Shown here: piece after piece, positions 1 through 47,366 of the stretch
How positions within the stretch are numbered: the first letter of the stretch is position 1
Layout: every line of letters begins with the position of its first letter
Source: a virus
Taxonomy: Duplodnaviria > Heunggongvirae > Uroviricota > Caudoviricetes
Length of the DNA stretch: 47,366 nucleotides
Reading direction: 5' to 3' (one strand)
IMG/VR virus record: IMGVR_UViG_2630968533_000004
Position numbers and translations under genes: made by a program
Notes under the pieces: generated by a model
What the model was told of the DNA's origin: nothing
The model's database searches: none
The model's input: only the letters and a program-made list of their open reading frames with translations

Positions 1-1
1 A

Positions 2-1297
2 TTAATTTTTCATTGCTTCGTTATGGGGCATGGTTGGGGCAAACTCGCTTAACTGTGTATTTAACAAAGCTACCTGTGCATTATTGTTTTCAGACATCCA
101 TTTTCCGTATACCTGAAATACCATTTGCGCATCTGCATGGCCCATCTGGTTTGCTATAAATGCCGGGTTAGCACCAGCTGTCAGCGACCAGCAGGCATAA
201 GTATGTCTCGACTGATATGATTTTCGATGGCGGAGTCCGGCACGTTTTATCGCTGCGTCCCACATCTGCCTTATTGAGTCAACGGTAAAATGGTCACCAT
301 AATTTTTTACTCTCGCTGACACTTCAGGTTGAAAAACAAAGGTGCATTTATGTTTTTCTGTTCTGCCATACTCTCTGAGGTGAACATCAATGATATGCTC
401 TTTGCTCAGTCTCGTTAATGTCATCTGACTCCGGAGAGCGTCGATTGCTGGCTTAATAAGATGAATGACCCGATTGGTTCCCGCCTGTGTTTTTGGTACC
501 GTGAAACGGTCTTTTGCTAAATTTCTCCTGATCATCATTGTTCCATTTTTCAGATCTATGTCCTCCCATCCAAGTGCACACAGCTCACCAGGGCGAACGC
601 CAGTATAAACAGAAACACACCATAAATTTTTGGCTTGCTGATTTCTGCACGCATCGATAAGACGGATGAATTCCTCCCGCGAAAGAGGATCCGGAATGGT
701 TCTTGATTCCTTTAATGGCGAGATCCCCTTAAACGGGTTATCTGCCAGGTAACCGTTATCAACACCAAACTGGAACACGGCGTTAAGATTTGTCATGTAA
801 TTATTTACAGTTACAGCCGATCTCCCTGGTTGTGTAACAATATAGTTACTTTTGGGGATCTGGTATCCAGTCAGTAGCTCTTTACGAACCTCCAGTAATT
901 TTTCTTTATTAATCGATGAGGCAAGATTTTTTTCACCGATTATGCTCAGGATATTTTTGATGACGGCACGGTATGTGTTGAGTGATGTTTTTGCGACTTC
1001 AGTTTCTTTCAGTGCCAGAAATTTTTCAGCCAGTTCTTTTATGGTTAAATCTTGTCGGGCCTCACCAAATTTTTCCAGATTGCGTGAGGAGGGAAACTGT
1101 TTTGCATAGTCGAAAACACCAGTTTTTATTGCGTAACAAACAGAGGCGCGTAGCTCACCTGCAACGCGCCTGTTTTTTGCTGTGTCAGGAACCCCCAGGT
1201 TTTCCCTGACTCTTACGCCTTTATAAACAAACCAGATACGTAATTTCCCTCCATGGTTTTCCACGCCTGTCGGATATTTCATTTCAACTTCTCTCAT
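2..1297 (-). CDS. int: Tyrosine-type phage integrase
   Basis: 431-aa ORF; C-terminal catalytic region RHRKSYQSRHTYACWSLTAGANPAFIANQMGH...VYGKW has the R..HxxR..Y layout of lambda-family integrases; sits at prophage edge next to an excisionase-like gene. Confidence 0.9.
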   Translation of the reverse strand: MREVEMKYPTGVENHGGKLRIWFVYKGVRVRENLGVPDTAKNRRVAGELRASVCYAIKTGVFDYAKQFPSSRNLEKFGEARQDLTIKELAEKFLALKETEVAKTSLNTYRAVIKNILSIIGEKNLASSINKEKLLEVRKELLTGYQIPKSNYIVTQPGRSAVTVNNYMTNLNAVFQFGVDNGYLADNPFKGISPLKESRTIPDPLSREEFIRLIDACRNQQAKNLWCVSVYTGVRPGELCALGWEDIDLKNGTMMIRRNLAKDRFTVPKTQAGTNRVIHLIKPAIDALRSQMTLTRLSKEHIIDVHLREYGRTEKHKCTFVFQPEVSARVKNYGDHFTVDSIRQMWDAAIKRAGLRHRKSYQSRHTYACWSLTAGANPAFIANQMGHADAQMVFQVYGKWMSENNNAQVALLNTQLSEFAPTMPHNEAMKN

Positions 1298-1316: not shown

Positions 1317-1568
1317 TCAAGTAAGATGACGTCTTGGTCTTGCTGATGCCTGGCGCTCAATCCAGCGATCAATTTCTTCCAGGTTGTAAAAGCATGGACT
1401 GTTATCCCATGGCATACCGTCATGAGCGACATGCTTATATTCCCTTCCTTCCATAAACGATTTTTCCCGGGCCTTTTTTAACGTACCTTTTTTTATTCCT
1501 TTCAGCGCAATTAACTGCTCTTCGGATACCCATTTGCCGGGAGAGACAATCATGATTACTTCGCTCAT
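1317..1568 (-). CDS. Excisionase-like small protein
   Basis: 83-aa basic ORF immediately upstream of int on the same strand; size and position typical of prophage Xis. Confidence 0.6.
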   Translation of the reverse strand: MSEVIMIVSPGKWVSEEQLIALKGIKKGTLKKAREKSFMEGREYKHVAHDGMPWDNSPCFYNLEEIDRWIERQASARPRRHLT

Positions 1569-1640: not shown

Positions 1641-4112
1641 TTAAGAATCAGCCTGACTCGGGATCAGTTTTTGCCAGATAGCTGAAACGTATTTTGCCTG
1701 GTAACGGGCGTCATCAAGTGCATTATGGCGCTCACCTTCGAATGGAATAGCCGTTCTGGCATCGAAGTCTATGGCTTTCCCCAGCTCAACGATTGTGCGT
1801 ACATCGCGATCGTTGTAGTAACGCCACGGGCAGGGGATCCCCTGCCGTTCGTATGAACGGCGCAAAATCGTGTTGTCGAAGTTGGCTCCATTTCCCCAGA
1901 CATGAACAAAAAATTCACCGGAGTTTTCGTCGATAAATTCCCGCAATTGTAACAGTGCATCATCTAACGGGATTTCATCGGTCATAATGGCAGATTGCGC
2001 TTCGCGTGATTGTTTAAGCCACCATTTAATGGTGTCCCGATCAATGACTCCGCCAGCAGTTTCCAGATCGATAGTCTTACTAAATTCCGGTCCCATATCT
2101 CCGGTTTGCGGATCGAAAAATATTGCACCTATTGAGATAATCGGGGCATCGGGATTTTTTCCCATGGTTTCAAGGTCGATCATCAGATGAATCCCCGCTC
2201 TGCTGGTGGATGTGAGATTATGATGACCGTTCACCTTAATTAAGGGATCTGACGCCTCGCCAGTTTCACTATCGCTGGCATGATGCTGATTGCTGCCAGT
2301 GTTCTCCTTGTGCTGATGCGCAGTGCCTTCCATTTCCTCCAGATCATTTTTCTGAACTTCAGGCTGATTCTCTCCATCGAATATTTCCTGGTATGTTGCG
2401 TCACCCATCACCGCACCACAATCAGGGCAGTTGCCGCCACCGCTCTGACCGCAGGCGGTGCAGATCTTTTCCGGTTCCTGTTGCACTACTGGTTCAGGTT
2501 GTTTCGTTTCTGGCTCGTTTTGTTGCGTATTTGGGCTGTTTTGTTCCGCTTTCTGGTCGTTCTGTTCCGTTTCTTGCTGGTTCTGGTTCACAGAATCGCG
2601 GGTCTGGATCCCCTTAATCCATTTCGGATCATTCGGGTCGCTAATCCCTTCAACAAATTCACCACGTGATACTGCAAGCAGTTCATCGGCGTCAGGCTGG
2701 CTGATATTGGCTGCCTGCATAATTTTGTTTACTTCGTCAGCGGTAACTTTTACTGACCCTGGTTGTGCGGTCGTGTCAGATGCACCAGTATTTTGTTGTG
2801 AACCTGAGTATGTACCGTTTTTGCGGGCGAAATATTCTTCTTTCGTGATTTCAGTAGCCCCAGCAGACAGCGCCTTATCCAGACCAGAAAGTTTATTTGC
2901 GCGACCGTATTTTTCGCCATCCTTGTCGGTGAAGAGGAAGTAGAACGGCCCCTCACGTTCTACAGATGGTTCGACTTCCACTTTGCATTCGGTTTTTTCG
3001 TTGTCTGGAATTGCCGTTTCCACTGCATCAGTTTCTGGTACTGGCGACGAGAGAGTATCAGTTGCGCTCTGATTTGTTCCTTCATCTTCAAACACGCCCT
3101 TTGTAGTCAGGTATTCAGTAATGTATTTGTTCAGTGCCACAGGGTCTTTGTGAATGTCGATCGGACGTTCACGGACAAGGCCAAAAATAGTCTGGCGGTC
3201 GTAGCGAAGGGCATCAGGCTGTTTGCGCATTGATGCCGAGATACGCTTCCAGTCTTCGCGGTCGTTGTCGATAACTTCATTTTTTGCCCAGCGATGGATG
3301 CTGCCGTCAATGTTTCCGGCATCCACATCACCAGGCCAGAGAGCGTAGGCCAGTTCGTCATCCAGTGTTTTCCATGTCTGCTTGTATTCGCGATGAATGG
3401 CAGCAATGACCGGGTTGATTTTTCCTGTTGAATTTTCAGTGTGCTGTTGATTGGCTCTGGCGCGGGCGAGATCAACAACAGACGTGTATTTTCCGGCTTC
3501 CTTGCGTTCACCTTCGCGACGTTTTTTCCAGATGCGCATCTCTGCCTGAATTTCGGGCCATTTGGCACCAGGCTTACATTTATGCTTAACCCACCCGATG
3601 GCATGCAGCTTAAGCTCCGGATACATAGCGTTAACTTCTGGCATTTTCATCAACGCTTCAACGATATGGCCGTCGAATGTTGCCATGTCTTCCTGCAACA
3701 ATTCCTGTGCGCTAATCACCATATCAACAGTGATGTTTTCACATGTGTCGAACTTAACCATGACAGCGTTCTGTACTTCAGGGGCTAGGTTGTCAAAAGT
3801 GACGTTCATCGGATCGGATTCAGTCTCGACCGGGACAAAGGAAGCAGACGCCTCATCCCAGCGGTTTTCCTGCATATATTCAGCATCCCAGGAATCGAGG
3901 GCAGGGCGGGGTATACCGGGTTTATCCTCGCAAACAAGAAATTTATAAGCGCAGTCCTGAGCAGCCGGATAATGTTCCAGGAATTGCCAGTGAAATTTTG
4001 CGCGGGCGCGACGTTCATCACCGGCTTCAATGGCAGTGGCTACAGCGACGGCACCTTCTTCCTTTATTGCCTGTTCGTCCGGAATGGCGGCGCAAATAAA
4101 GACTTTACTCAT
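1641..4112 (-). CDS. Large exonuclease with C-terminal DnaQ-like (DEDDh) 3'-5' exonuclease domain
   Basis: 823-aa ORF; C-terminus carries MIDLETMG (Exo I), WGNGANFDNTIL (Exo II) and HNALDDARYQAKY (Exo III, H-x4-D) motifs; central CTACGQSGGGNCPDCG zinc-ribbon-like motif and Q/N/E-rich low-complexity linker. Confidence 0.75.
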   Translation of the reverse strand: MSKVFICAAIPDEQAIKEEGAVAVATAIEAGDERRARAKFHWQFLEHYPAAQDCAYKFLVCEDKPGIPRPALDSWDAEYMQENRWDEASASFVPVETESDPMNVTFDNLAPEVQNAVMVKFDTCENITVDMVISAQELLQEDMATFDGHIVEALMKMPEVNAMYPELKLHAIGWVKHKCKPGAKWPEIQAEMRIWKKRREGERKEAGKYTSVVDLARARANQQHTENSTGKINPVIAAIHREYKQTWKTLDDELAYALWPGDVDAGNIDGSIHRWAKNEVIDNDREDWKRISASMRKQPDALRYDRQTIFGLVRERPIDIHKDPVALNKYITEYLTTKGVFEDEGTNQSATDTLSSPVPETDAVETAIPDNEKTECKVEVEPSVEREGPFYFLFTDKDGEKYGRANKLSGLDKALSAGATEITKEEYFARKNGTYSGSQQNTGASDTTAQPGSVKVTADEVNKIMQAANISQPDADELLAVSRGEFVEGISDPNDPKWIKGIQTRDSVNQNQQETEQNDQKAEQNSPNTQQNEPETKQPEPVVQQEPEKICTACGQSGGGNCPDCGAVMGDATYQEIFDGENQPEVQKNDLEEMEGTAHQHKENTGSNQHHASDSETGEASDPLIKVNGHHNLTSTSRAGIHLMIDLETMGKNPDAPIISIGAIFFDPQTGDMGPEFSKTIDLETAGGVIDRDTIKWWLKQSREAQSAIMTDEIPLDDALLQLREFIDENSGEFFVHVWGNGANFDNTILRRSYERQGIPCPWRYYNDRDVRTIVELGKAIDFDARTAIPFEGERHNALDDARYQAKYVSAIWQKLIPSQADS

Positions 4113-4204
4113 TTTGTTTTACCTCATTACAGATTTAAGGGTGAACAAATCCCTGCCATTGCTGGCATATAAGAATGAAATCGGATGTTTATTACGGAAC
4201 TGTT

Positions 4205-4396
4205 TTAAAGACCTGCCGGGATTTCGTTATTATCCTGGTGAATAACTTTATCGACCGGGTAACAGTTACCGGGAATTTTCTGTTCGGTTGCTGCAGTCAC
4301 ACACTCCTGCATTGTCCTGTGAACACTGACTGCAATATCAACTGGCTCTCCGGAAACAAGAAAAACTGTCAGAACAAGTGCAAATGCTGTATTCAT
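4205..4396 (-). CDS. ydfD: YdfD-like small lysis/membrane protein
   Basis: Internal Met of ORF 4205..4450 gives 63 aa MNTAFALVLTVFLVSGEPVDIAV... with hydrophobic N-terminus; start overlaps stop of the upstream dicB-like gene (ATGA); matches recalled Qin YdfD. Confidence 0.6.
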   Translation of the reverse strand: MNTAFALVLTVFLVSGEPVDIAVSVHRTMQECVTAATEQKIPGNCYPVDKVIHQDNNEIPAGL

Positions 4397-6687: not shown

Positions 6688-7192
6688 ACAGGCTCGTGAG
6701 GCTCTGGATGCCTGGATATGTCGACCAGGAATGACACAGGAGCAGGCGACGATATTAATCACTGAAGCATTCTGGGCTTTGAAAGAGCGCCCGAACATCG
6801 ATGTTCAGCGTGTCACAGATGAAGGTGGCGCGGTTGATCAGCGAGCGCTTGGCGTTAATCGAGTGAAGATATTCGAACGCTGGAAGGCTATCGACACTAG
6901 GGATAAGCGTGAAAAGTTCACGGCGCTAGTGCCTGCAATTATGGAGGCTATCCGGATTAATGATTTCAGGTTGTATCGTGAAATTAGTGACGGAAAAAGC
7001 ATCACGTACATGATCGCCGGGTTAAACAAAGAATATGGCGATGTGGTGGAGTCCGGACTGCTTTTTGCTGATCCTGCCGTAGTGGATCGTGAAACTGACG
7101 AACTTATAGAAAAAGCAATTGCTTTCAAACTTGCGTATCGACAGCAATACCAACAAAAAGCTGGATGGAATTATGAGCCTTCTTTTTGCTGA
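6671..7192 (+). CDS. YdaT-like regulatory protein
   Basis: 173-aa ORF in the CII-equivalent position after the Cro-like gene; segment RVKIFERWKAIDTRDKREKFTALVPAIMEAI resembles the recalled YdaT family pattern. Confidence 0.5.
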   Translation: MKITPEQAREALDAWICRPGMTQEQATILITEAFWALKERPNIDVQRVTDEGGAVDQRALGVNRVKIFERWKAIDTRDKREKFTALVPAIMEAIRINDFRLYREISDGKSITYMIAGLNKEYGDVVESGLLFADPAVVDRETDELIEKAIAFKLAYRQQYQQKAGWNYEPSFC

Positions 7193-8138
7193 ACGCCCAC
7201 TGGTTATAAACACACAGCTTGCGATGAAGATTGGCTTAAATGAAGCCATTGTGTTGCAGCAGTTGCATTACTGGTTGAGAGATACCAATTCCGGCATGGA
7301 ATGTGATGGTGTTCGCTGGATTTACAACACAACGGAACAATGGCTGGAACAGTTCCCATTCTGGTCAGAGTCAACGTTAAAGCGCGCGTTTGCAAGTCTG
7401 AAAACGCTGGGGCTTTTGCGTTGTGAAAAGCTCAATAAATCAAAGCGCGATATGACCAATTTCTACACGATCAACTACGGGAGCGAGCTTTTAGATGGTG
7501 GCAAATTGAGCGAATCCATCGGTTTAAAATGCGCCGCTCCATCAGGTCAAAATGACACGATGGAAGAGGTCAAAATGAAACGCTCCATTGGTTCAAAACG
7601 ACCCAATGTCATCGGGTCAAAATGGCCTGATGATCTTACAGAGAATACAACAGAGATTACTACAGAGAATAAAAACACTTTTCGTCCGGAAGCTTCGCAA
7701 CCGGACCCGCAGACCGCTGAACAGGATTTTTTAACCCGGAACCCCGACGCGGTTGTGTTTAGTGCGAAAAAACGCCAGTGGGGTAGCAGGGAGGATTTGG
7801 CGTGTGCGCAGTGGATTTGGGGGCGGATCGTGAACCTTTACGAACAGGCTGCCAGCGACGATGGAGAGATCATGCGACCAAAAGAGCCTAACTGGACAGC
7901 CTGGGCCAATGACGTGCGCACAATGCGGATGCTGGATGGCAGAAGCCACAGACAAATTTGCGAAATGTTTGGTCGGGTACAGCGAGATCAATTCTGGGTA
8001 AAAAACATCATGAGCCCGTCAAAACTCCGCGAAAAATGGGACGAACTGGTCATCCGCCTGGGACGTTCACCTGTACAGCGTTGTATGAATCATATTTCTG
8101 AACCGGATACAGAAATTCCGCCTGGTTTCAGAGGATAA
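7173..8138 (+). CDS. Replication initiation / replisome organiser protein (DnaT-like C-terminus)
   Basis: N-terminus MSLLFAERPLVINTQLAMKIGLNEAIVLQQLHYWL is winged-helix-like; C-terminus WANDVRTMRMLDGRSHRQICEMFGRVQRDQFWV is DnaT-like; gene contains iterons. Confidence 0.6.
   Translation: MSLLFAERPLVINTQLAMKIGLNEAIVLQQLHYWLRDTNSGMECDGVRWIYNTTEQWLEQFPFWSESTLKRAFASLKTLGLLRCEKLNKSKRDMTNFYTINYGSELLDGGKLSESIGLKCAAPSGQNDTMEEVKMKRSIGSKRPNVIGSKWPDDLTENTTEITTENKNTFRPEASQPDPQTAEQDFLTRNPDAVVFSAKKRQWGSREDLACAQWIWGRIVNLYEQAASDDGEIMRPKEPNWTAWANDVRTMRMLDGRSHRQICEMFGRVQRDQFWVKNIMSPSKLREKWDELVIRLGRSPVQRCMNHISEPDTEIPPGFRG
7521..7625. repeat. Origin-like iterons (5 copies of about GGTCAAAATG, roughly 23-bp spacing) plus downstream AT-rich ACAGAGA repeats
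   Basis: ggtttaaaatg, ggtcaaaatga, ggtcaaaatga, ggttcaaaacga, ggtcaaaatgg read directly; followed by ttacagagaatacaacagagattactacagagaataaaaac; lies inside the replication gene like lambda ori inside O. Confidence 0.55.
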
Positions 8139-8580: not shown

Positions 8581-8779
8581 TGTTAGGTATTTTAGACGTT
8601 ACTAGATTAAAAAGCATTAGTTCAGGAGTGAATTGACATTCTCATTTTTCATGGCACAGGGTAGATCTGGCGTGGTTGTCCGCTTTGTGCCAGAAGCGGA
8701 CGTTACAATACAATCACTATGCTAATGCGCATTGATATGTGATATAACAATAATCAACCGTTCAAAAAGGAGCATTTAT

Positions 8780-9802
8780 ATGAGCAGGATGATAATTGAT
8801 ACAAATATTCTTTACTCACTAGTTGGTCTGTCGACAAACCAAAAAATAATTAACTCCCCTATAGATCAATTCAAATTATCCATTACGACACCATCACTCA
8901 TAGAAGTGATCTCTAAATATTGCAATGACTTAGGGGCTGTAAAAAAATGCATTAGCCCAATCATAAACGGAAATATTGAACTAATTAGCATTGGTCATAC
9001 TCCAATCTCAAATGAATTTCTTTATAGGTTGCATTTTTCAGACAAAATAGACGAAGTAAAAGATATTATTGATAATGTTAGAGCACTAAAAATATCTAGA
9101 GAGGCTGAGTTTTATAGGTTCATACTCATACTGGTTGTCTCTGGTTTGTTTGAGGTTATTAGAGAAGATGGATACAAGTTTGATAACGATGTACAAAATC
9201 AAAGTCAACTTAGTCTTGTGCAGACTCTACTTGAATCTAATATGGAATTAATTTTAGACTTCTTTAAAGATGAGTTGCGGAATGGATATATTAATGGAAA
9301 TGAGCAGCAATCAGCTTTGAAAGCTTTTGAAACCATGCTTATCGGACTCCTACATGCTTTTCATGTCAACTATCATATGATTAAAACTGACACAGTTAAC
9401 ATTTCCGGAAGCCAAGACAGACTCAAAAATCTGTATGATAGTATAAAAAATGATAATTTTGATAAAAAGTTTAAAAAATATATGGAGAATCCAATATCCC
9501 TTGCCTGCAAAAAAAAACACGAATCAGTAGTTGATAACTACCTGAAAGAAATGGAGGAGGGGATTTCTGGCGCTCGTGGGCTTACTAAGAATTCGTTGAG
9601 CTTTCTAATGAGCAAGGTTGAGGATGCATATAAAAATGGTCGTAAATTACGAAAAAATGACATATTTGACTTTCTAATAGTTATTTCTCTAAATATGCCA
9701 GACACTTTGATTTTAACACTTGATAAAGGTTTTTTAAAAGACCTTAAAGATCTTCACCCTAACAGCTATAAAAAGTGTCTGGATTTCGGTTTTGTAAATT
9801 AA
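8780..9802 (+). CDS. AT-rich cargo protein, candidate PIN-like nuclease fold (possible defence / abortive-infection gene)
   Basis: 340 aa from ATG at 8780 with AAGGAG RBS; N-terminus MSRMIIDTNILYSLVG resembles the start of PIN domains (catalytic Asp in DTN), C-terminus DTLILTLDKGF resembles a PIN C-terminal strand; K/N/I-rich composition, visibly lower GC than flanking phage genes. Confidence 0.65.
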   Translation: MSRMIIDTNILYSLVGLSTNQKIINSPIDQFKLSITTPSLIEVISKYCNDLGAVKKCISPIINGNIELISIGHTPISNEFLYRLHFSDKIDEVKDIIDNVRALKISREAEFYRFILILVVSGLFEVIREDGYKFDNDVQNQSQLSLVQTLLESNMELILDFFKDELRNGYINGNEQQSALKAFETMLIGLLHAFHVNYHMIKTDTVNISGSQDRLKNLYDSIKNDNFDKKFKKYMENPISLACKKKHESVVDNYLKEMEEGISGARGLTKNSLSFLMSKVEDAYKNGRKLRKNDIFDFLIVISLNMPDTLILTLDKGFLKDLKDLHPNSYKKCLDFGFVN

Positions 9803-10873
9803 AAATATATTGATGTAAAATAAAACGCACCCACATTTAACTTAGCTAGACTATATCCTTCAATTATTCTATCTGCTTTTTGTTAAATGTGGGGTTGCAG
9901 ATGTTACGAGTCAATTAAATTTGCAAGTCAGGTAGAATTGATAAGAATTGCAATACGAATCCGTGAACATTAATGCTAACGCTAAGTATACGAAAGATAT
10001 TGTAAATATACTTCTTTTTTTGTTTTTAAGTTCTTTTATTTGACAGTAGTTCCATCATTCAATTGCGTATTATCTTCCAATGCCAGTGACACTCCCTCAT
10101 TATGAGAGGATTGTGGTAATCAAAAGAAAAATTAATATCACGCCAAGAATATTCGAAACCAACCCTATGGTGTTAAGTCCTGGTGATGTCATTTAGTTTG
10201 CTCTAGGTTTATTATTCAGAAAGCAAAGAATATTCGTTAAATTATTATGTTAGCTTTAATTATTAAAAAACATGTTAATTATCATCAAATGAGCACTTAT
10301 CATCATTTTAGTCAAAGAGGTAGTGAGTATTCATTCTGGATCATAACTGCCTTCCTGTTTACGCTAGTGTTTTTTAAAGTCGATGTCCGCTCATCGCTCA
10401 AAGCGGACTAGAAGGTTAGCTTGTGTCGGACTTTGCGTATTAAATGACTAGTGGTTGAGCCCCATTTCCACAGAAAAAATCAGAGAAACTATACCCAATA
10501 GTTGTATTGAATCACTGACGAGACAGCCTCATATTCATCAGGACTGGTGTACGTCCAATACAGGAGGTTGTGGTGCTGGTTCTCAAATGTGCGCTGGCTA
10601 TTACGGCTGTAATGGCGATTTATTGTCTTGCTATTGTTCTTATGGATCGCCTTTCTGACTGATTTCACATTGGCGAGGTAACGGTAGTTAAGTAGAATGG
10701 CTGCGGGTGCTTGAGGCTATCTGCCTCGGGCATGAACACCAACGGCAGATAGAGAAAAGCCCCAGTTAACATTACGCGTCCTGCAAGACGCTTAACATTA
10801 ATCTGAGGCCAATTTCATGCTAGACACATGTAGGTTAGCCTCTTACGTGCCGAAAGGCAAGGAGAAGCAGGCT

Positions 10874-11029
10874 ATGAAGCAGCAAAAGGCGATGTTAATC
10901 GCCCTGATCGTCATCTGTTTAACCGTCATAGTGACGGCACTGGTAACGAGGAAAGACCTCTGCGAGGTACGAATCCGAACCGGGCAGACGGAGGTCGCTG
11001 TCTTCACAGCTTACGAACCTGAGGAGTAA
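10874..11029 (+). CDS. hokD: Hok/Gef-family type I toxin
   Basis: 51 aa MKQQKAMLIALIVICLTVIVTALVTRKDLCEVRIRTGQTEVAVFTAYEPEE matches recalled HokD/RelF; ORF extends upstream in-frame (10817). Confidence 0.85.
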   Translation: MKQQKAMLIALIVICLTVIVTALVTRKDLCEVRIRTGQTEVAVFTAYEPEE

Positions 11030-14241: not shown

Positions 14242-14317
14242 GGCCCTTTAGCTCAGTGGTGAGAGCGAGCGACTCATAATCGCCAGGTCGCTGGTTCAAA
14301 TCCAGCAAGGGCCACCA
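14242..14317 (+). tRNA. tRNA-Ile2 (anticodon CAU, lysidine type) or Met
   Basis: 76-nt cloverleaf folded by hand: acceptor GGCCCTT/AAGGGCC, D-stem GCTC/GAGC, anticodon loop CTCATAA, T-arm GCTGG-TTCAAAT-CCAGC, CCA end; close to recalled E. coli ileX. Confidence 0.85.
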
Positions 14318-14417
14318 TCACAAACCGCCATTAGCTTATCAGGAAGAGCAGACGACACGATAACAGGGTTGTTGGTGCGGGGGCGGGTCCCCGATGGCGG
14401 TCCATTATCGGTATTCA

Positions 14418-14494
14418 GCGTTGTTAGCTCAGCCGGACAGAGCAATTGCCTTCTAAGCAATCGGTCACTGGTTCGAATCCAGTACAGCGCGCCA
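14418..14494 (+). tRNA. tRNA-Arg (anticodon UCU)
   Basis: Acceptor GCGTTGT/ACAGCGC, anticodon stem ATTGC/GCAAT with loop CTTCTAA, T-loop GGTTCGAATCC, CCA end. Confidence 0.85.
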
Positions 14495-14958: not shown

Positions 14959-15491
14959 ATACATATCTGGATTATCACCTGTTACGGTAAAAAGTGATTG
15001 CTTACTGTTTTTGTGAATGGCATTGCAGCAGCCGGATAATGTCAGTGCTGGCTGACGGTGTGCTGGTGGCGGGTGTGGTGGTTGTTGCTTTCCCGTTGCT
15101 GAAAAAGAAAACGCCAGACTGTTAGCCGGGTATCAGTTAGCGGGAGAAATTTTTAAATACTTCACAATTCAGGCGGTTGACTGTTCTCTGGTTTGCGGGG
15201 AGTTTGTTAAAAGAAACTGGCATGGTGAATCCCCCTGTGCGGAGGGGCAATCAGCGAGTAGGTATATGGGATAATCGCGGATTCAGGTGCTGGTACTGAA
15301 TTCACCGGGAGGCACCCGGCACCATGCACTTCAATAGATTCTCTCCACATTATGGATATTCTTTCAGAATATCCCACGCAGACTTTGTGTAAATGTTAAC
15401 AAATGTGCGTTTTATTTGATCTGATTCGCTGTTTGAGCGTCCAAAACAACGGTATATATAATCCTTTACTATATGACATATGTGAGGAAAA

Positions 15492-18273: not shown

Positions 18274-18637
18274 ATTAATATTAAATCGGATTATTTTTAG
18301 CGCTGAATGTGAAATTTAAATAAAAAGGACTCTTCCATGAGTCAAAATCCTTGAAATCTTAAGGGTAAGATAAAAGGTCATTAGACAGAATGACACGTTT
18401 TATTAATAAATAAAGCTATTGTTTCATTCGTGTGTTTTTCTTTACAAAAGTAATCCTTGCTATGGTTGGTTAATCATGCGTTAATGGTGTTCTGGTTTGT
18501 TACAAAATTATCTGAAGCAGTCATTGTTATAATTTTATTATTTGTACCTCTTGAGATTTCCTTGTTGGTTTTTCTCTCTGATATTTTTTTTTCGGACCAT
18601 TCTGCCCAAGGGCTAACTTCTTCAAAAGGTAATAATG

Positions 18638-18850
18638 ATGTCTAACAAAATGACTGGTTTAGTGAAATGGTTTAACCCTGAAAAAGGTTTTGGTTTCATC
18701 ACGCCGAAAGATGGTAGCAAAGATGTGTTTGTGCATTTCTCAGCTATTCAGAGCAACGATTTCAAAACGTTAACTGAGAATCAGGAAGTCGAATTTGGTA
18801 TTGAGAACGGACCTAAAGGCCCTGCAGCTGTTCATGTAGTGGCACTTTGA
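18638..18850 (+). CDS. cspI: Cold-shock protein (CspA family, CspI-like)
   Basis: [38 protein letters not shown]... with RNP1/RNP2 motifs; long AT-rich 5' leader typical of csp genes. Confidence 0.85.
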
Positions 18851-19121
18851 GGTAGAAAATATTACAAACCATATTCACTTTAGATGCCCGTGTTGCCATG
18901 GTTCTCAGTATAGAACATCATCTTTTGATGTTTCTGACAGAAATCCTTTCGGGGCAAAATGTATCTTTTGTAAATCAATGATGATTACATTTGATAATAT
19001 TTCACAATACTTAAATGTTAGCCATCTGTCGTTAGATTTAAGAAAGTGAAAATGAAGGCTCCTTCGGGAGCTTTTTTGCTTAGTGTCTAGTCGATGGATA
19101 CTCACATATTACGGTAACATT

Positions 19122-46082: not shown

Positions 46083-47366
46083 ATGGATTTCCAGTTATAT
46101 TCGCTCGGCGCAGCGTTAGTGTTTCATGAAATATTTTTTCCTGAATCATCAACGGCAATGGCGTTAATTCTGGCAATGGGAACCTACGGTGCAGGTTATG
46201 TGGCGCGTATTGTCGGAGCATTTATTTTCGGCAAAATGGGCGACAGAATAGGGCGTAAAAAAGTACTCTTTATTACCATCACCATGATGGGGATCTGTAC
46301 CACCTTAATTGGTGTGTTACCGACCTATGCACAGATTGGTGTTTTTGCACCCATCTTGCTGGTGACGCTGCGTATTATTCAGGGATTGGGTGCAGGTGCG
46401 GAAATTTCCGGTGCCGGTACGATGCTGGCGGAATATGCGCCAAAAGGTAAGCGCGGAATTATCTCCTCATTTGTTGCTATGGGGACTAACTGCGGAACCT
46501 TGAGCGCAACGGCAATCTGGGCCTTTATGTTCTTCATTCTCAGTAAAGAGGAACTGTTGGCGTGGGGATGGCGTATACCGTTCCTGGCGAGCGTTGTCGT
46601 GATGGTCTTTGCTATCTGGTTGCGTATGAATCTGAAAGAAAGCCCGGTCTTTGAGAAGGTTAACGACAGCAATCAACCGACAGCAAAACCTGCACCTGCT
46701 GGTAGCATGTTCCAGAGCAAATCCTTCTGGCTGGCAACAGGGCTGCGTTTTGGTCAGGCTGGTAACTCAGGTTTAATTCAGACTTTCCTTGCAGGCTATT
46801 TAGTGCAGACGTTATTGTTTAACAAAGCAATTCCAACAGATGCATTGATGATCAGTTCGATTCTCGGCTTTATGACCATTCCGTTCCTTGGTTGGTTATC
46901 CGATAAAATAGGTCGCCGGATCCCGTATATTATTATGAATACCTCTGCGATTGTGCTGGCGTGGCCAATGCTTTCTATCATCGTAGATAAAAGCTATGCC
47001 CCGAGCACCATTATGGTTGCACTGATTGTGATTCATAACTGTGCGGTGCTGGGATTATTTGCTCTGGAAAACATTACCATGGCAGAAATGTTCGGCTGTA
47101 AAAACCGCTTTACCCGGATGGCTATTTCTAAAGAAATTGGTGGTCTTATCGCTTCCGGTTTTGGTCCTATCCTGGCGGGTATTTTCTGCACCATGACGGA
47201 ATCCTGGTATCCGATCGCCATTATGATCATGGCATATTCAGTGATTGGTTTAATCTCTGCGCTGAAAATGCCAGAAGTGAAAGACCGTGATTTAAGTGCA
47301 CTGGAAGATGCCGCGGAAGATCAACCGCGTGTTGTAACAGCAGCGCAACCTTCAAGAAGTCTGTAA
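46083..47366 (+). CDS. ydfJ: MFS transporter (metabolite:H+ symporter family), host gene at prophage boundary
   Basis: 427 aa, multiple TM helices, MFS motif GKMGDRIGRKK; N-terminus begins inside the conserved first-helix region, so the gene appears 5'-truncated; an upstream out-of-frame MGKNTCELWISSYIRSAQR* reading suggests disruption. Confidence 0.8.
   Translation: MDFQLYSLGAALVFHEIFFPESSTAMALILAMGTYGAGYVARIVGAFIFGKMGDRIGRKKVLFITITMMGICTTLIGVLPTYAQIGVFAPILLVTLRIIQGLGAGAEISGAGTMLAEYAPKGKRGIISSFVAMGTNCGTLSATAIWAFMFFILSKEELLAWGWRIPFLASVVVMVFAIWLRMNLKESPVFEKVNDSNQPTAKPAPAGSMFQSKSFWLATGLRFGQAGNSGLIQTFLAGYLVQTLLFNKAIPTDALMISSILGFMTIPFLGWLSDKIGRRIPYIIMNTSAIVLAWPMLSIIVDKSYAPSTIMVALIVIHNCAVLGLFALENITMAEMFGCKNRFTRMAISKEIGGLIASGFGPILAGIFCTMTESWYPIAIMIMAYSVIGLISALKMPEVKDRDLSALEDAAEDQPRVVTAAQPSRSL

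Follow-up and report, generated by a model that had tools for sequence, protein, structure and literature searches.

A DEDDh-type exonuclease on a RecE-family scaffold in an annealase-less Qin-site prophage

What can a phage exonuclease do in the genomic slot of RecE when it carries another type of nuclease domain and has no annealase at its side? This question is raised by the early-left region of a 47,366-nt tailed-phage record (IMG/VR IMGVR_UViG_2630968533_000004; hereafter the window, i.e. the whole stretch of DNA that was analysed), which we identified as a Qin-site prophage of the mEp460/Tritos type. Its exonuclease gene is the last of the dicA-repressed early-left (dicBF) operon, which otherwise holds only ydfD, dicB, DicF and small ydfA/B/C-like ORFs, the Qin operon being given as ydfABC-dicF-dicB-ydfDE (bioRxiv 10.1101/2023.04.14.536235). 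The sole gene separating it from dicB is ydfD, and xis lies 72 bp beyond its stop codon, in the position occupied by recT in RecET prophages. In the search for a promoter or terminator of its own, consensus sites were fewer than in shuffled sequence, and none was found upstream on the minus strand. K-12 Qin carries its pseudogene counterpart, ydfE, of which the window gene is the intact version; literature searches on Rv2179c together with phage, and on YdfE, returned nothing relevant. The features of the locus are the following.

1317-1568, minus strand: xis (excisionase), directly downstream of the exonuclease gene (ORF list and annotation of an identical phage record)
1641-4112, minus strand: exonuclease gene, complete, 823 aa, ATG start (ORF list), matching PHROG 2082 'exonuclease' over positions 1-822 of 823
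1674-2189, minus strand: DEDDh (DnaQ-like, Rv2179c/DexA-type) 3'-5' exonuclease domain, aa 642-813, Pfam PF16473
2202-2209, plus strand: Chi site (GCTGGTGG) inside the exonuclease gene, ~30 nt away from the module breakpoint that borders the DEDDh-coding segment on its 5' side
2238-3329, minus strand: middle region common with canonical RecE, aa 262-625, including Pfam YdfE_C and ending where the RecE nuclease domain would start
2418-2462, minus strand: CxxC-x7-CxxC zinc-ribbon-like motif, aa 551-565 (C551-x2-C554-x7-C562-x2-C565)
2499-2582, minus strand: imperfect 21-nt (7-aa) tandem repeat encoding a Q/N/E/P-rich linker (Tandem Repeats Finder)
2817-2960, minus strand: mini-domain ERxGPFY...GRANK..., aa 385-432, with columns nearly invariant in a 62-sequence alignment
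3333-4112, minus strand: N-terminal module of the YdfE_N type, aa 1-260, in place of which other family members have the Exonuc_VIII (PF06630) N-terminus known from K-12 RecE
4205-4396, minus strand: ydfD (DUF1482, 63 aa), PHROG 1092 matching ORF residues 19-81, named as in RefSeq at homologous loci

The nuclease domain and its scaffold

The original prediction assigned to the C-terminus a domain bearing all three DnaQ-family motifs and not of the RecE/lambda-Exo type, and both parts of this assignment held. PF16473 (Rv2179c-like 3'-5' exonuclease) matched aa 642-813 with an E-value of 6.7e-67 and 225 bits against a cutoff of 27, covering positions 2-177 of the 177 of the model, with RNase_T as a weak second match only in the Pfam search of the window protein. 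The catalytic residues D646 and E648 (IDLETMG), D746 (GANFDN), H796 and D801 (HNALDD) are intact, and none of the five varies when the protein is aligned with T4 DexA and with five homologues from phages. No PF12684 or YqaJ match to a PD-(D/E)XK nuclease was obtained for the window protein, unlike K-12 RecE and the proteins P0032 and P0038, in which PF12684 was found; tblastn with the RecE nuclease domain was also negative. Since the catalytic domain is of the DEDDh and not of the PD-(D/E)XK type, the expected polarity is 3'-5' instead of the 5'-3' of RecE. The only solved relatives identified by sequence were 8kel and 8ken, variants of one 227-aa 'Exodeoxyribonuclease' chain (E 6e-6) that we take to be T4 DexA, and the same search returned no Rv2179c structure entry at E <= 1. 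This apparently nearer kinship to DexA than to Rv2179c hints at a DNA substrate; the founding member of PF16473 is an exoribonuclease, so RNA is also a possible substrate of the window enzyme.

The N-terminal two thirds of the protein correspond to the non-catalytic part of RecE-family proteins, an origin that the original prediction had overlooked. NCBIfam NF007259 (RecE) matched aa 245-626 only, to model positions 270-603, and its score of 274 bits against a cutoff of 1269 did not reach the RecE equivalog threshold. In BLASTP, residues 278-591 of K-12 RecE aligned with aa 262-625 (E 9e-60), cysteine motif included. Furthermore, 900-aa E. coli proteins, 93-95% identical to the window protein over aa 1-625, carry a PD-(D/E)XK C-terminus and have recT as the next gene. 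DNA homology to such a PD-(D/E)XK/recT allele (locus L002) runs from window position 4194 to 2239 at 96% and then stops, and this break, at residue ~625, coincides with the RecE domain boundary. These RecE matches and the 93-95% identity of its scaffold to PD-(D/E)XK proteins show the window gene to be a RecE-family chimera with a swapped nuclease. The domain architecture, the intact DEDDh active site and a sharp switch between modules where the RecE domains meet are all established at the level of sequence.

Every pairing of N modules with C modules was found in the family. In other enterobacteria, the same scaffold occurs fused to a Rad52-like annealase domain. The mini-domain at aa 385-432, absent from K-12 RecE and corresponding to a gap in the RecE alignment, was modelled by AlphaFold as a beta-hairpin with helices (pLDDT ~85). 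No informative fold relative of the scaffold was found, so its binding to DNA ends or to partners is assumed. Full-length RecE raises end-to-end recombination through its otherwise uncharacterised N-terminal region (review PMC11611040).

A zinc ribbon and a Q/N/E/P-rich linker encoded by repetitive DNA had also been described from the sequence. The linker was recovered, the 21-nt repeat counting 4.0 copies with 74% matches in Tandem Repeats Finder, in agreement with a direct-repeat family, and the Q/N/E/P/T/S fraction reaching 0.53-0.65 over aa 481-560. The CxxC...CxxC motif is likewise present, with a counterpart in K-12 RecE (CNACGQTGGDNCPDC at 518-532), but the zinc site was not borne out: the Pfam DZR match is weak (E 0.13) and AlphaFold confidence is low there, so the element is a zinc-ribbon-like sequence motif and not a demonstrated zinc site. 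Only some family members have it; these include proteins with either nuclease type but none with the Rad52-like domain. The zinc ribbon was ruled out as a defining feature, given this partial distribution, its presence in K-12 RecE and the low model confidence.

Missing partners, Chi sites and prevalence

The claim that no RecT/Bet-like gene lies between the exonuclease gene and dicB extends to the entire window: the Pfam scan of ten non-structural ORFs returned no RecT, Erf or Rad52 family, and tblastn searches of the complete window with RecT, the RecE nuclease domain (591-866) and a Rad52-like domain reached an E-value of 0.23 at best. Small ORFs around 4112-4205, suggested as a place for a missed partner, did not provide one; the 92-bp gap at 4113-4204 holds no minus-strand ORF, and a hidden partner ORF was found neither there nor in 1569-1640. 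Among the same ten ORFs, no anti-RecBCD family (Gam, GamL or Abc2) was detected. No annealase, SSB or anti-RecBCD gene was recognised in the prophage. A cognate annealase adjoining the nuclease gene is also absent from three other E. coli loci and from phage Tritos; at the L002 locus and in Rac, recT-lar-ydaC stand between the nuclease gene and xis.

Chi sites are enriched in the window, with seven on the top strand and two on the bottom strand for 1.5 expected, and none of 100 shuffles reached nine. Five of the seven top-strand sites are located at 0.60-0.93 of the virion map, within its right-hand 40%. The Chi site internal to the exonuclease gene keeps the same offset, 561 nt from the end of the gene, in each of the five copies compared (the window, loci L003, L004 and L005, and Tritos).

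This combination corresponds to the Tritos Rec-module class of Zheng, Casjens, Davidson, Amundsen & Smith (2025, Genome Res, PMC12315714), which comprises a nuclease only, with no annealase, SSB or anti-RecBCD gene, and a Chi-rich top strand; with ten ORFs scanned for Gam/GamL/Abc2, the Rec module of the window is a nuclease-only module of this type. The main text of that article counts only four Tritos-type phages, calls one- and two-gene Rec modules 'somewhat suspect', and does not state that the Tritos nuclease is a RecE-scaffold/DEDDh chimera (PMC12315714).

Of 5426 complete E. coli genomes, 4068 carry the DEDDh module (8107 places, often several per genome) and 1749 carry recT, the window-type exonuclease gene being 4-5 times more frequent than recT in E. 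coli. Carried by about three quarters of complete genomes, it is among the most widespread E. coli prophage genes, and no early-left layout is more frequent in E. coli prophages than the annealase-less one. The Tritos-like layout observed here is therefore real but not new, since a great many E. coli prophages share it and a 2025 publication already defined it as a class. Against three homologues, dN/dS was 0.10-0.20 in the N region and 0.15-0.30 in the DEDDh domain, so the gene is under purifying selection. Intact copies of 812-826 aa are the norm, many database entries being partial, and copies also occur in phage genomes deposited as complete (mEp460_ev081, Tritos, HannyBb and PhiR42_1), mEp460_ev081 having been described as functional and temperate.

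Possible roles of the exonuclease

We tentatively propose, with a probability of roughly 45%, that a DexA/Rv2179c-type DEDDh domain replaced the PD-(D/E)XK 5'-3' nuclease together with recT-lar-ydaC, and that the resulting protein serves as a tethered accessory to host-run phage recombination. It would be produced in lytic growth, its RecE-type scaffold would bring the nuclease to phage DNA ends or recombination intermediates, and the DEDDh domain would remove nucleotides from DNA 3' ends, in support of a recombination-dependent replication otherwise run by host RecBCD-Chi-RecA. It may trim 3' flaps or displaced strands, or expose 5' tails, and would not be one half of a self-sufficient exonuclease-annealase pair. 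Reliance on host recombination is suggested because the window has no annealase or other Rec-module gene and nine Chi sites against 1.5 expected, and the scaffold seems nuclease-agnostic and tied to recombination because the same 625 residues carry the RecE nuclease and adjoin recT at L002, and all module pairings occur. Against an accessory role, 3'-5' DnaQ-like exonucleases usually oppose RecA-type recombination by removing 3' tails (PMC12315714), and an anti-phage function was assigned in 2025 to an E. coli DexA homologue (PMC12153337).

The latter assignment raises the alternative of a defence or superinfection nuclease ('HREX'-like), whose DEDDh domain would selectively degrade modified DNA brought in by T-even-type phages and protect the lysogen or the induced cell. 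According to Kang et al. (2025, PMC12153337), the E. coli DexA homologue EcD (HAK9828821.1, not equated here with the window protein) degrades T4 DNA and spares unmodified DNA, plasmid-borne EcD protects against T4, and no other genus contributes as many bacterial DexA homologues as Escherichia. Those of E. coli must mostly be copies of this prophage module, since it is present in 75% of genomes. The window domain and DexA also have their catalytic residues in common. We nevertheless regard a defence role as unlikely: expression in the lysogen is not expected, because the gene is distal in a repressor-controlled early-left operon and the longer ydfABC-dicFB-ydfDE transcript was not detected in K-12 (bioRxiv 10.1101/2023.04.14.536235). 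In addition, the proposed 5hmC-recognition residues of DexA are not kept (W152 aligns with Y766 and D169 with A780, the alignment of the D169 loop being uncertain), the DexA 'tetramer' residue D90, lost in EcD, is kept as D718, and defence gives no rationale for a fusion to a RecE scaffold. The sole PADLOC hit was to a generic model for Cas-associated DEDDh proteins (E 1e-5), and a defence-system assignment by this route was dropped. An enzyme of scavenging or turnover, degrading host DNA fragments or RNA to feed phage replication with no part in recombination, seems equally improbable. Rv2179c degrades RNA, and such a role would suit the PF16473 membership and the stand-alone ~190-aa homologues that unrelated temperate phages encode, without the scaffold, at the int-proximal end of their early-left operons. 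A scavenging role is established for T4 DexA (PMC12153337). However, a 640-aa RecE scaffold under purifying selection would be superfluous for this purpose, and the exchange partners of the DEDDh domain are recombination effectors; temperate lambdoid phages are not known to degrade the host chromosome.

Two further alternatives stay within the RecET framework. In a self-sufficient single-strand annealing of reversed polarity, 3'-5' resection would expose complementary 5' tails able to anneal unaided or helped by host factors, replacing RecE and RecT together. The protein does occupy the genomic slot of RecE on the same scaffold, and E. coli exonuclease III, by resecting DNA 3'-5', supports end joining in vivo without RecA, but no annealing domain was detectable in the window protein, and both the excess of Chi sites and the missing anti-RecBCD gene favour reliance on RecBCD-RecA, which makes such autonomy quite unlikely. 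Finally, the gene could be a decaying remnant, i.e. a RecET module that lost recT, gained an irrelevant domain and is passively carried by defective prophages. The truncated ydfE pseudogene that is all K-12 Qin holds, the many partial database entries and the doubts of Zheng et al. on one-gene modules (PMC12315714) point in this direction, but decay is very improbable in view of the intact full-length copies, the dN/dS well below 1 in both structured parts, the conserved active site, the 8107 copies in 4068 genomes and the complete phage genomes, one of them from a phage described as functional, that carry the gene.

Returning to the tethered accessory, a broader and more doubtful generalisation would be that the RecE-type scaffold (a YdfE_N or Exonuc_VIII module with the common middle region) is a general recombination platform with swappable effectors (PD-(D/E)XK, DEDDh or Rad52-like), the DEDDh version, which is the most frequent in E. 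coli, being one in which the phage may supply tethered 3'-5' end processing while host RecBCD-Chi-RecA performs strand exchange; the Chi site at the module border may aid shuffling. A RecE scaffold joined to a nuclease of opposite polarity offers a handle on the role of the 600-aa N-terminal region of RecE, as well as on recombination-dependent replication in annealase-less, Chi-rich lambdoid phages. Full-length RecE is used in linear-linear cloning, so the chimera may also matter for recombineering tools. Database names are inconsistent ('exodeoxyribonuclease VIII', '3'-5' exoribonuclease', 'exonuclease'), and DEDDh-bearing proteins should not be named RecE/ExoVIII.

Comparison with known systems

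T4 DexA and Rv2179c have the DEDDh fold family and the five catalytic residues in common with the window domain, at 24-28% identity. Both are single-domain proteins, whereas the window DEDDh domain forms the C-terminal quarter of an 823-aa protein, and neither the extra loops of T4 DexA nor its proposed 5hmC-recognition residues are kept. Rac RecE combines a PD-(D/E)XK nuclease with an Exonuc_VIII-type N-terminus and has recT, lar and ydaC downstream, whereas the window protein has a DEDDh domain, its first 260 residues are of the YdfE_N type, and its gene is without all three. The 'RecE-2' proteins of Zheng et al. (2025) are YdfE_N/YdfE_C proteins from prophages of Salmonella, Enterobacter, Klebsiella and Citrobacter, whose N-terminal scaffold is ~30-40% identical to that of the window and whose early-left position is also the same.

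The K-12 Qin prophage occupies the same chromosomal site as the window prophage, beside rspB, with the same dicB and ydfD neighbours, and its ydfE is 96% identical to the window protein over aa 1-257; however, it is truncated by IS2E, with neither the middle region nor the nuclease domain left, whereas the window gene is intact. Tritos, the prototype of its class, is alike throughout: TRITO_27 is the same 823-aa protein with a DEDDh domain 96% identical to that of the window, the gene order int-xis-exo-ydfD-dicB-DicF is common to both, and the Chi range of the Tritos class ends at 7/2, the count of the window (PMC12315714). Between Tritos and the window, there is no essential difference.

Architecture of the exonuclease

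1641-4112, minus strand: ORF of 823 aa encoding the putative exonuclease

The C-terminal part of this protein (aa 642-813) matched Pfam PF16473, the Rv2179c-like 3'-5' exonucleases, end to end (E 6.7e-67), in agreement with the DnaQ-family domain of the original prediction. All DEDDh residues (D646, E648, D746, H796 and D801) are present, and none of them varies when the protein is aligned with T4 DexA and five phage homologues. The only solved structures reached by sequence were 8kel and 8ken, two variants of a 227-aa chain named 'Exodeoxyribonuclease', which we take to be T4 DexA. The predicted CxxC...CxxC motif and repeat-encoded linker were also recovered, as CxxC-x7-CxxC at aa 551-565 and, N-terminal to it, a Q/N/E/P-rich stretch encoded by four imperfect 21-nt repeats (2499-2582).

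What had been overlooked is the nature of the N-terminal two thirds of the protein, namely the non-catalytic part of the RecE family. The NCBIfam RecE model covers aa 245-626, with a score far under the cutoff because the nuclease part is absent. K-12 RecE aligns with aa 262-625, shares the Cys motif and is near-identical over the final 150 residues, the alignment stopping at RecE residue 591, the start of its catalytic domain. With aa 1-641 as the query, thousands of E. coli proteins of 823 or 826 aa with the same architecture came up, together with 900-aa and 1057-aa proteins, 93-95% identical over this region and ending in PD-(D/E)XK (PF12684). In the one locus examined for the 900-aa form, recT overlaps the gene end, with lar, a DUF1187 gene, xis and int next in line. 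The window DNA matches this locus at 96% identity between 4194 and 2239, past which the two are unrelated, indicating a single recombination junction at codon ~625, which swaps 'RecE nuclease + recT + lar + ydaC' for 'DEDDh nuclease'. A top-strand Chi site (2202-2209, plus strand) lies inside the gene, ~30 nt from this breakpoint, and occurs at the same offset in five of the five DEDDh copies examined, which are 95-97% identical and so not independent. The site might promote swapping of the nuclease module by RecBCD, or its position may be coincidental.

The same modularity extends to 247 relatives, retrieved from 1.8 billion cluster representatives. The N module comes in two versions, YdfE_N (window) or Exonuc_VIII (K-12 RecE), and precedes a middle region common to the dissected relatives. 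Besides DEDDh, a short PD-(D/E)XK and a long PD-(D/E)XK, the C modules include at least two that are foreign to Pfam. All N and C combinations were found among the dissected relatives. An ST131 copy has a different N module and the same DEDDh domain. Exonucleases of both kinds and an annealase occur on this scaffold, which ties it to recombination. Its model gave confident sub-domains but no informative fold relatives. The most conserved scaffold element across 62 homologues is a small beta-hairpin/helix mini-domain (aa 385-432; 2817-2960, minus strand; ERxGPFY...GRANK), absent from K-12 RecE. Five representatives (P0125, P0259, P0263, P0265 and P0266) carry another C-terminal module of ~240 aa on the same scaffold, without Pfam match and with PHROG 26058 (unknown function) as sole match.

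Prophage context and absence of an annealase

1-1297, minus strand: integrase gene, inside which the window begins
46083-47366, plus strand: host MFS-transporter gene, right end of the window
10705-10879, 14242-14491, 15191-15381 and 18479-18896: Rfam matches of the late-regulatory/lysis region (sok antitoxin RNA, two tRNA genes, STnc100 sRNA, cspA-type thermoregulator)

This lambdoid prophage shows 100% identity with Escherichia phage mEp460_ev081 over the first 6.5 kb of the window, beyond which it is a close mosaic relative. As its edges lie in the integrase and host MFS-transporter genes, it represents a prophage integrated at the Qin site and not a packaged genome. In the left part, int and xis are followed by the target gene, ydfD, dicB and the DicF RNA and, after small ORFs, by the repressor and Cro. 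This gene order recurs in the cryptic prophage Qin of K-12, beside rspB, a decayed counterpart in which the pseudogene ydfE is 96% identical to our gene over the first 257 codons, then interrupted by IS2E.

The predicted lack of a RecT/Bet-like gene held throughout. No annealase was found by Pfam among ten non-structural ORFs of the window (which gave RusA, DUF968, Q, YdaT, DUF977 and a TolA-like protein), a PHROG scan named an O-like replication protein, and tblastn of RecT, the RecE nuclease domain and a Rad52-like domain against the whole window found nothing. Within 4112-4205, which was to be checked for a missed partner, the 92-bp gap before ydfD contains no minus-strand ORF, and on the other side xis follows the stop codon after only 72 bp. 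The original prediction was confirmed in every part, and its interpretation is supported.

Elsewhere, the replication module (7119-8138, plus strand) appears to have a single O-like initiator and no lambda-P-type helicase loader, an unusual feature also seen in the Rec-module-less phage LLS (Zheng et al. 2025, PMC12315714). A 356-aa ORF (8732-9802, plus strand) in a low-GC stretch (0.31-0.37), without match in Pfam, PHROGs or PADLOC, sits within 8705-10384, the sole early-right segment where the window departs from mEp460_ev081; it has the look of a moron, an accessory gene gained by insertion, and may serve in defence. The cspA-type thermoregulator stands upstream of a cold-shock gene.

Prevalence, selection and potential function

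The 600 nt encoding the DEDDh domain occur at 8107 places in 4068 of 5426 complete E. coli genomes (at most seven per genome), and recT in 1749. Three loci from lower in the ranking, representing two different integrases and two insertion sites, share the order int-xis-exo-ydfD-dicB. Against three homologues, dN/dS came to 0.10-0.20 for the N region and 0.15-0.30 for the DEDDh domain, with ~0.4 for the linker-rich middle between them. The gene was also found in phage genomes deposited as complete, among them that of mEp460_ev081, a functional temperate phage according to its description (bioRxiv 10.1101/2023.04.14.536235). Such copy numbers, dN/dS below 1 and presence in complete phages make a decaying remnant very improbable. 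Databases give this one protein several names ('exodeoxyribonuclease VIII', '3'-5' exoribonuclease', '3'-5' exonuclease' or 'exonuclease'), of which ExoVIII/RecE is wrong for both the DEDDh and the Rad52-like alleles.

Beyond what was observed directly (architecture, active site, module exchange, no phage-encoded partners, Chi enrichment and selection), we tentatively propose, with a probability of roughly 0.45, a scaffold-tethered 3'-5' DNA exonuclease assisting host-driven recombination-dependent replication. During lytic growth, the scaffold would place the exonuclease at phage DNA ends or joint molecules, where it may aid replication run by host RecBCD-Chi-RecA. Against this accessory role, 3'-5' exonucleases of such type usually oppose RecA-type recombination, and RNA is a possible substrate. 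A defence nuclease appears unlikely. Kang et al. (2025, PMC12153337) report that the E. coli DexA homologue 'EcD' degrades T4 DNA and protects against T4, but of the signature residues given there, W152 and D169 are lost in the alignment (Y766 and A780; the D169 loop aligns with some uncertainty), and DexA D90 is kept as D718, contrary to that signature. Our gene is moreover distal in the DicA-repressed dicBF operon (bioRxiv 10.1101/2023.04.14.536235), and no promoter of its own stood out in a consensus scan. A scavenging enzyme seems just as unlikely, and a self-sufficient annealing system of reversed polarity is a little more doubtful still.

Comparison with the Tritos type

Having surveyed 325 lambdoid phages for their Rec modules, Zheng, Casjens, Davidson, Amundsen and Smith (2025; PMC12315714) reported that some modules encode DnaQ-like 3'-5' nucleases, and defined a 'Tritos' functional type with a nuclease and without annealase, SSB or anti-RecBCD protein. 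Its four members are all Chi-rich (21/6 to 7/2 top/bottom-strand sites), and these authors argued that phages without anti-RecBCD function gather Chi and exploit host RecBCD. The window contains 9 Chi sites against 1.5 expected, 7 of them top-strand, 5 of these 7 within the right 40% of the virion map. Phage Tritos carries the same 823-aa gene, with a 96% identical DEDDh domain and the same gene order. Together with the Chi enrichment, this match places our gene in the published class, which was described recently but is abundant and already annotated, so that its novelty is low.
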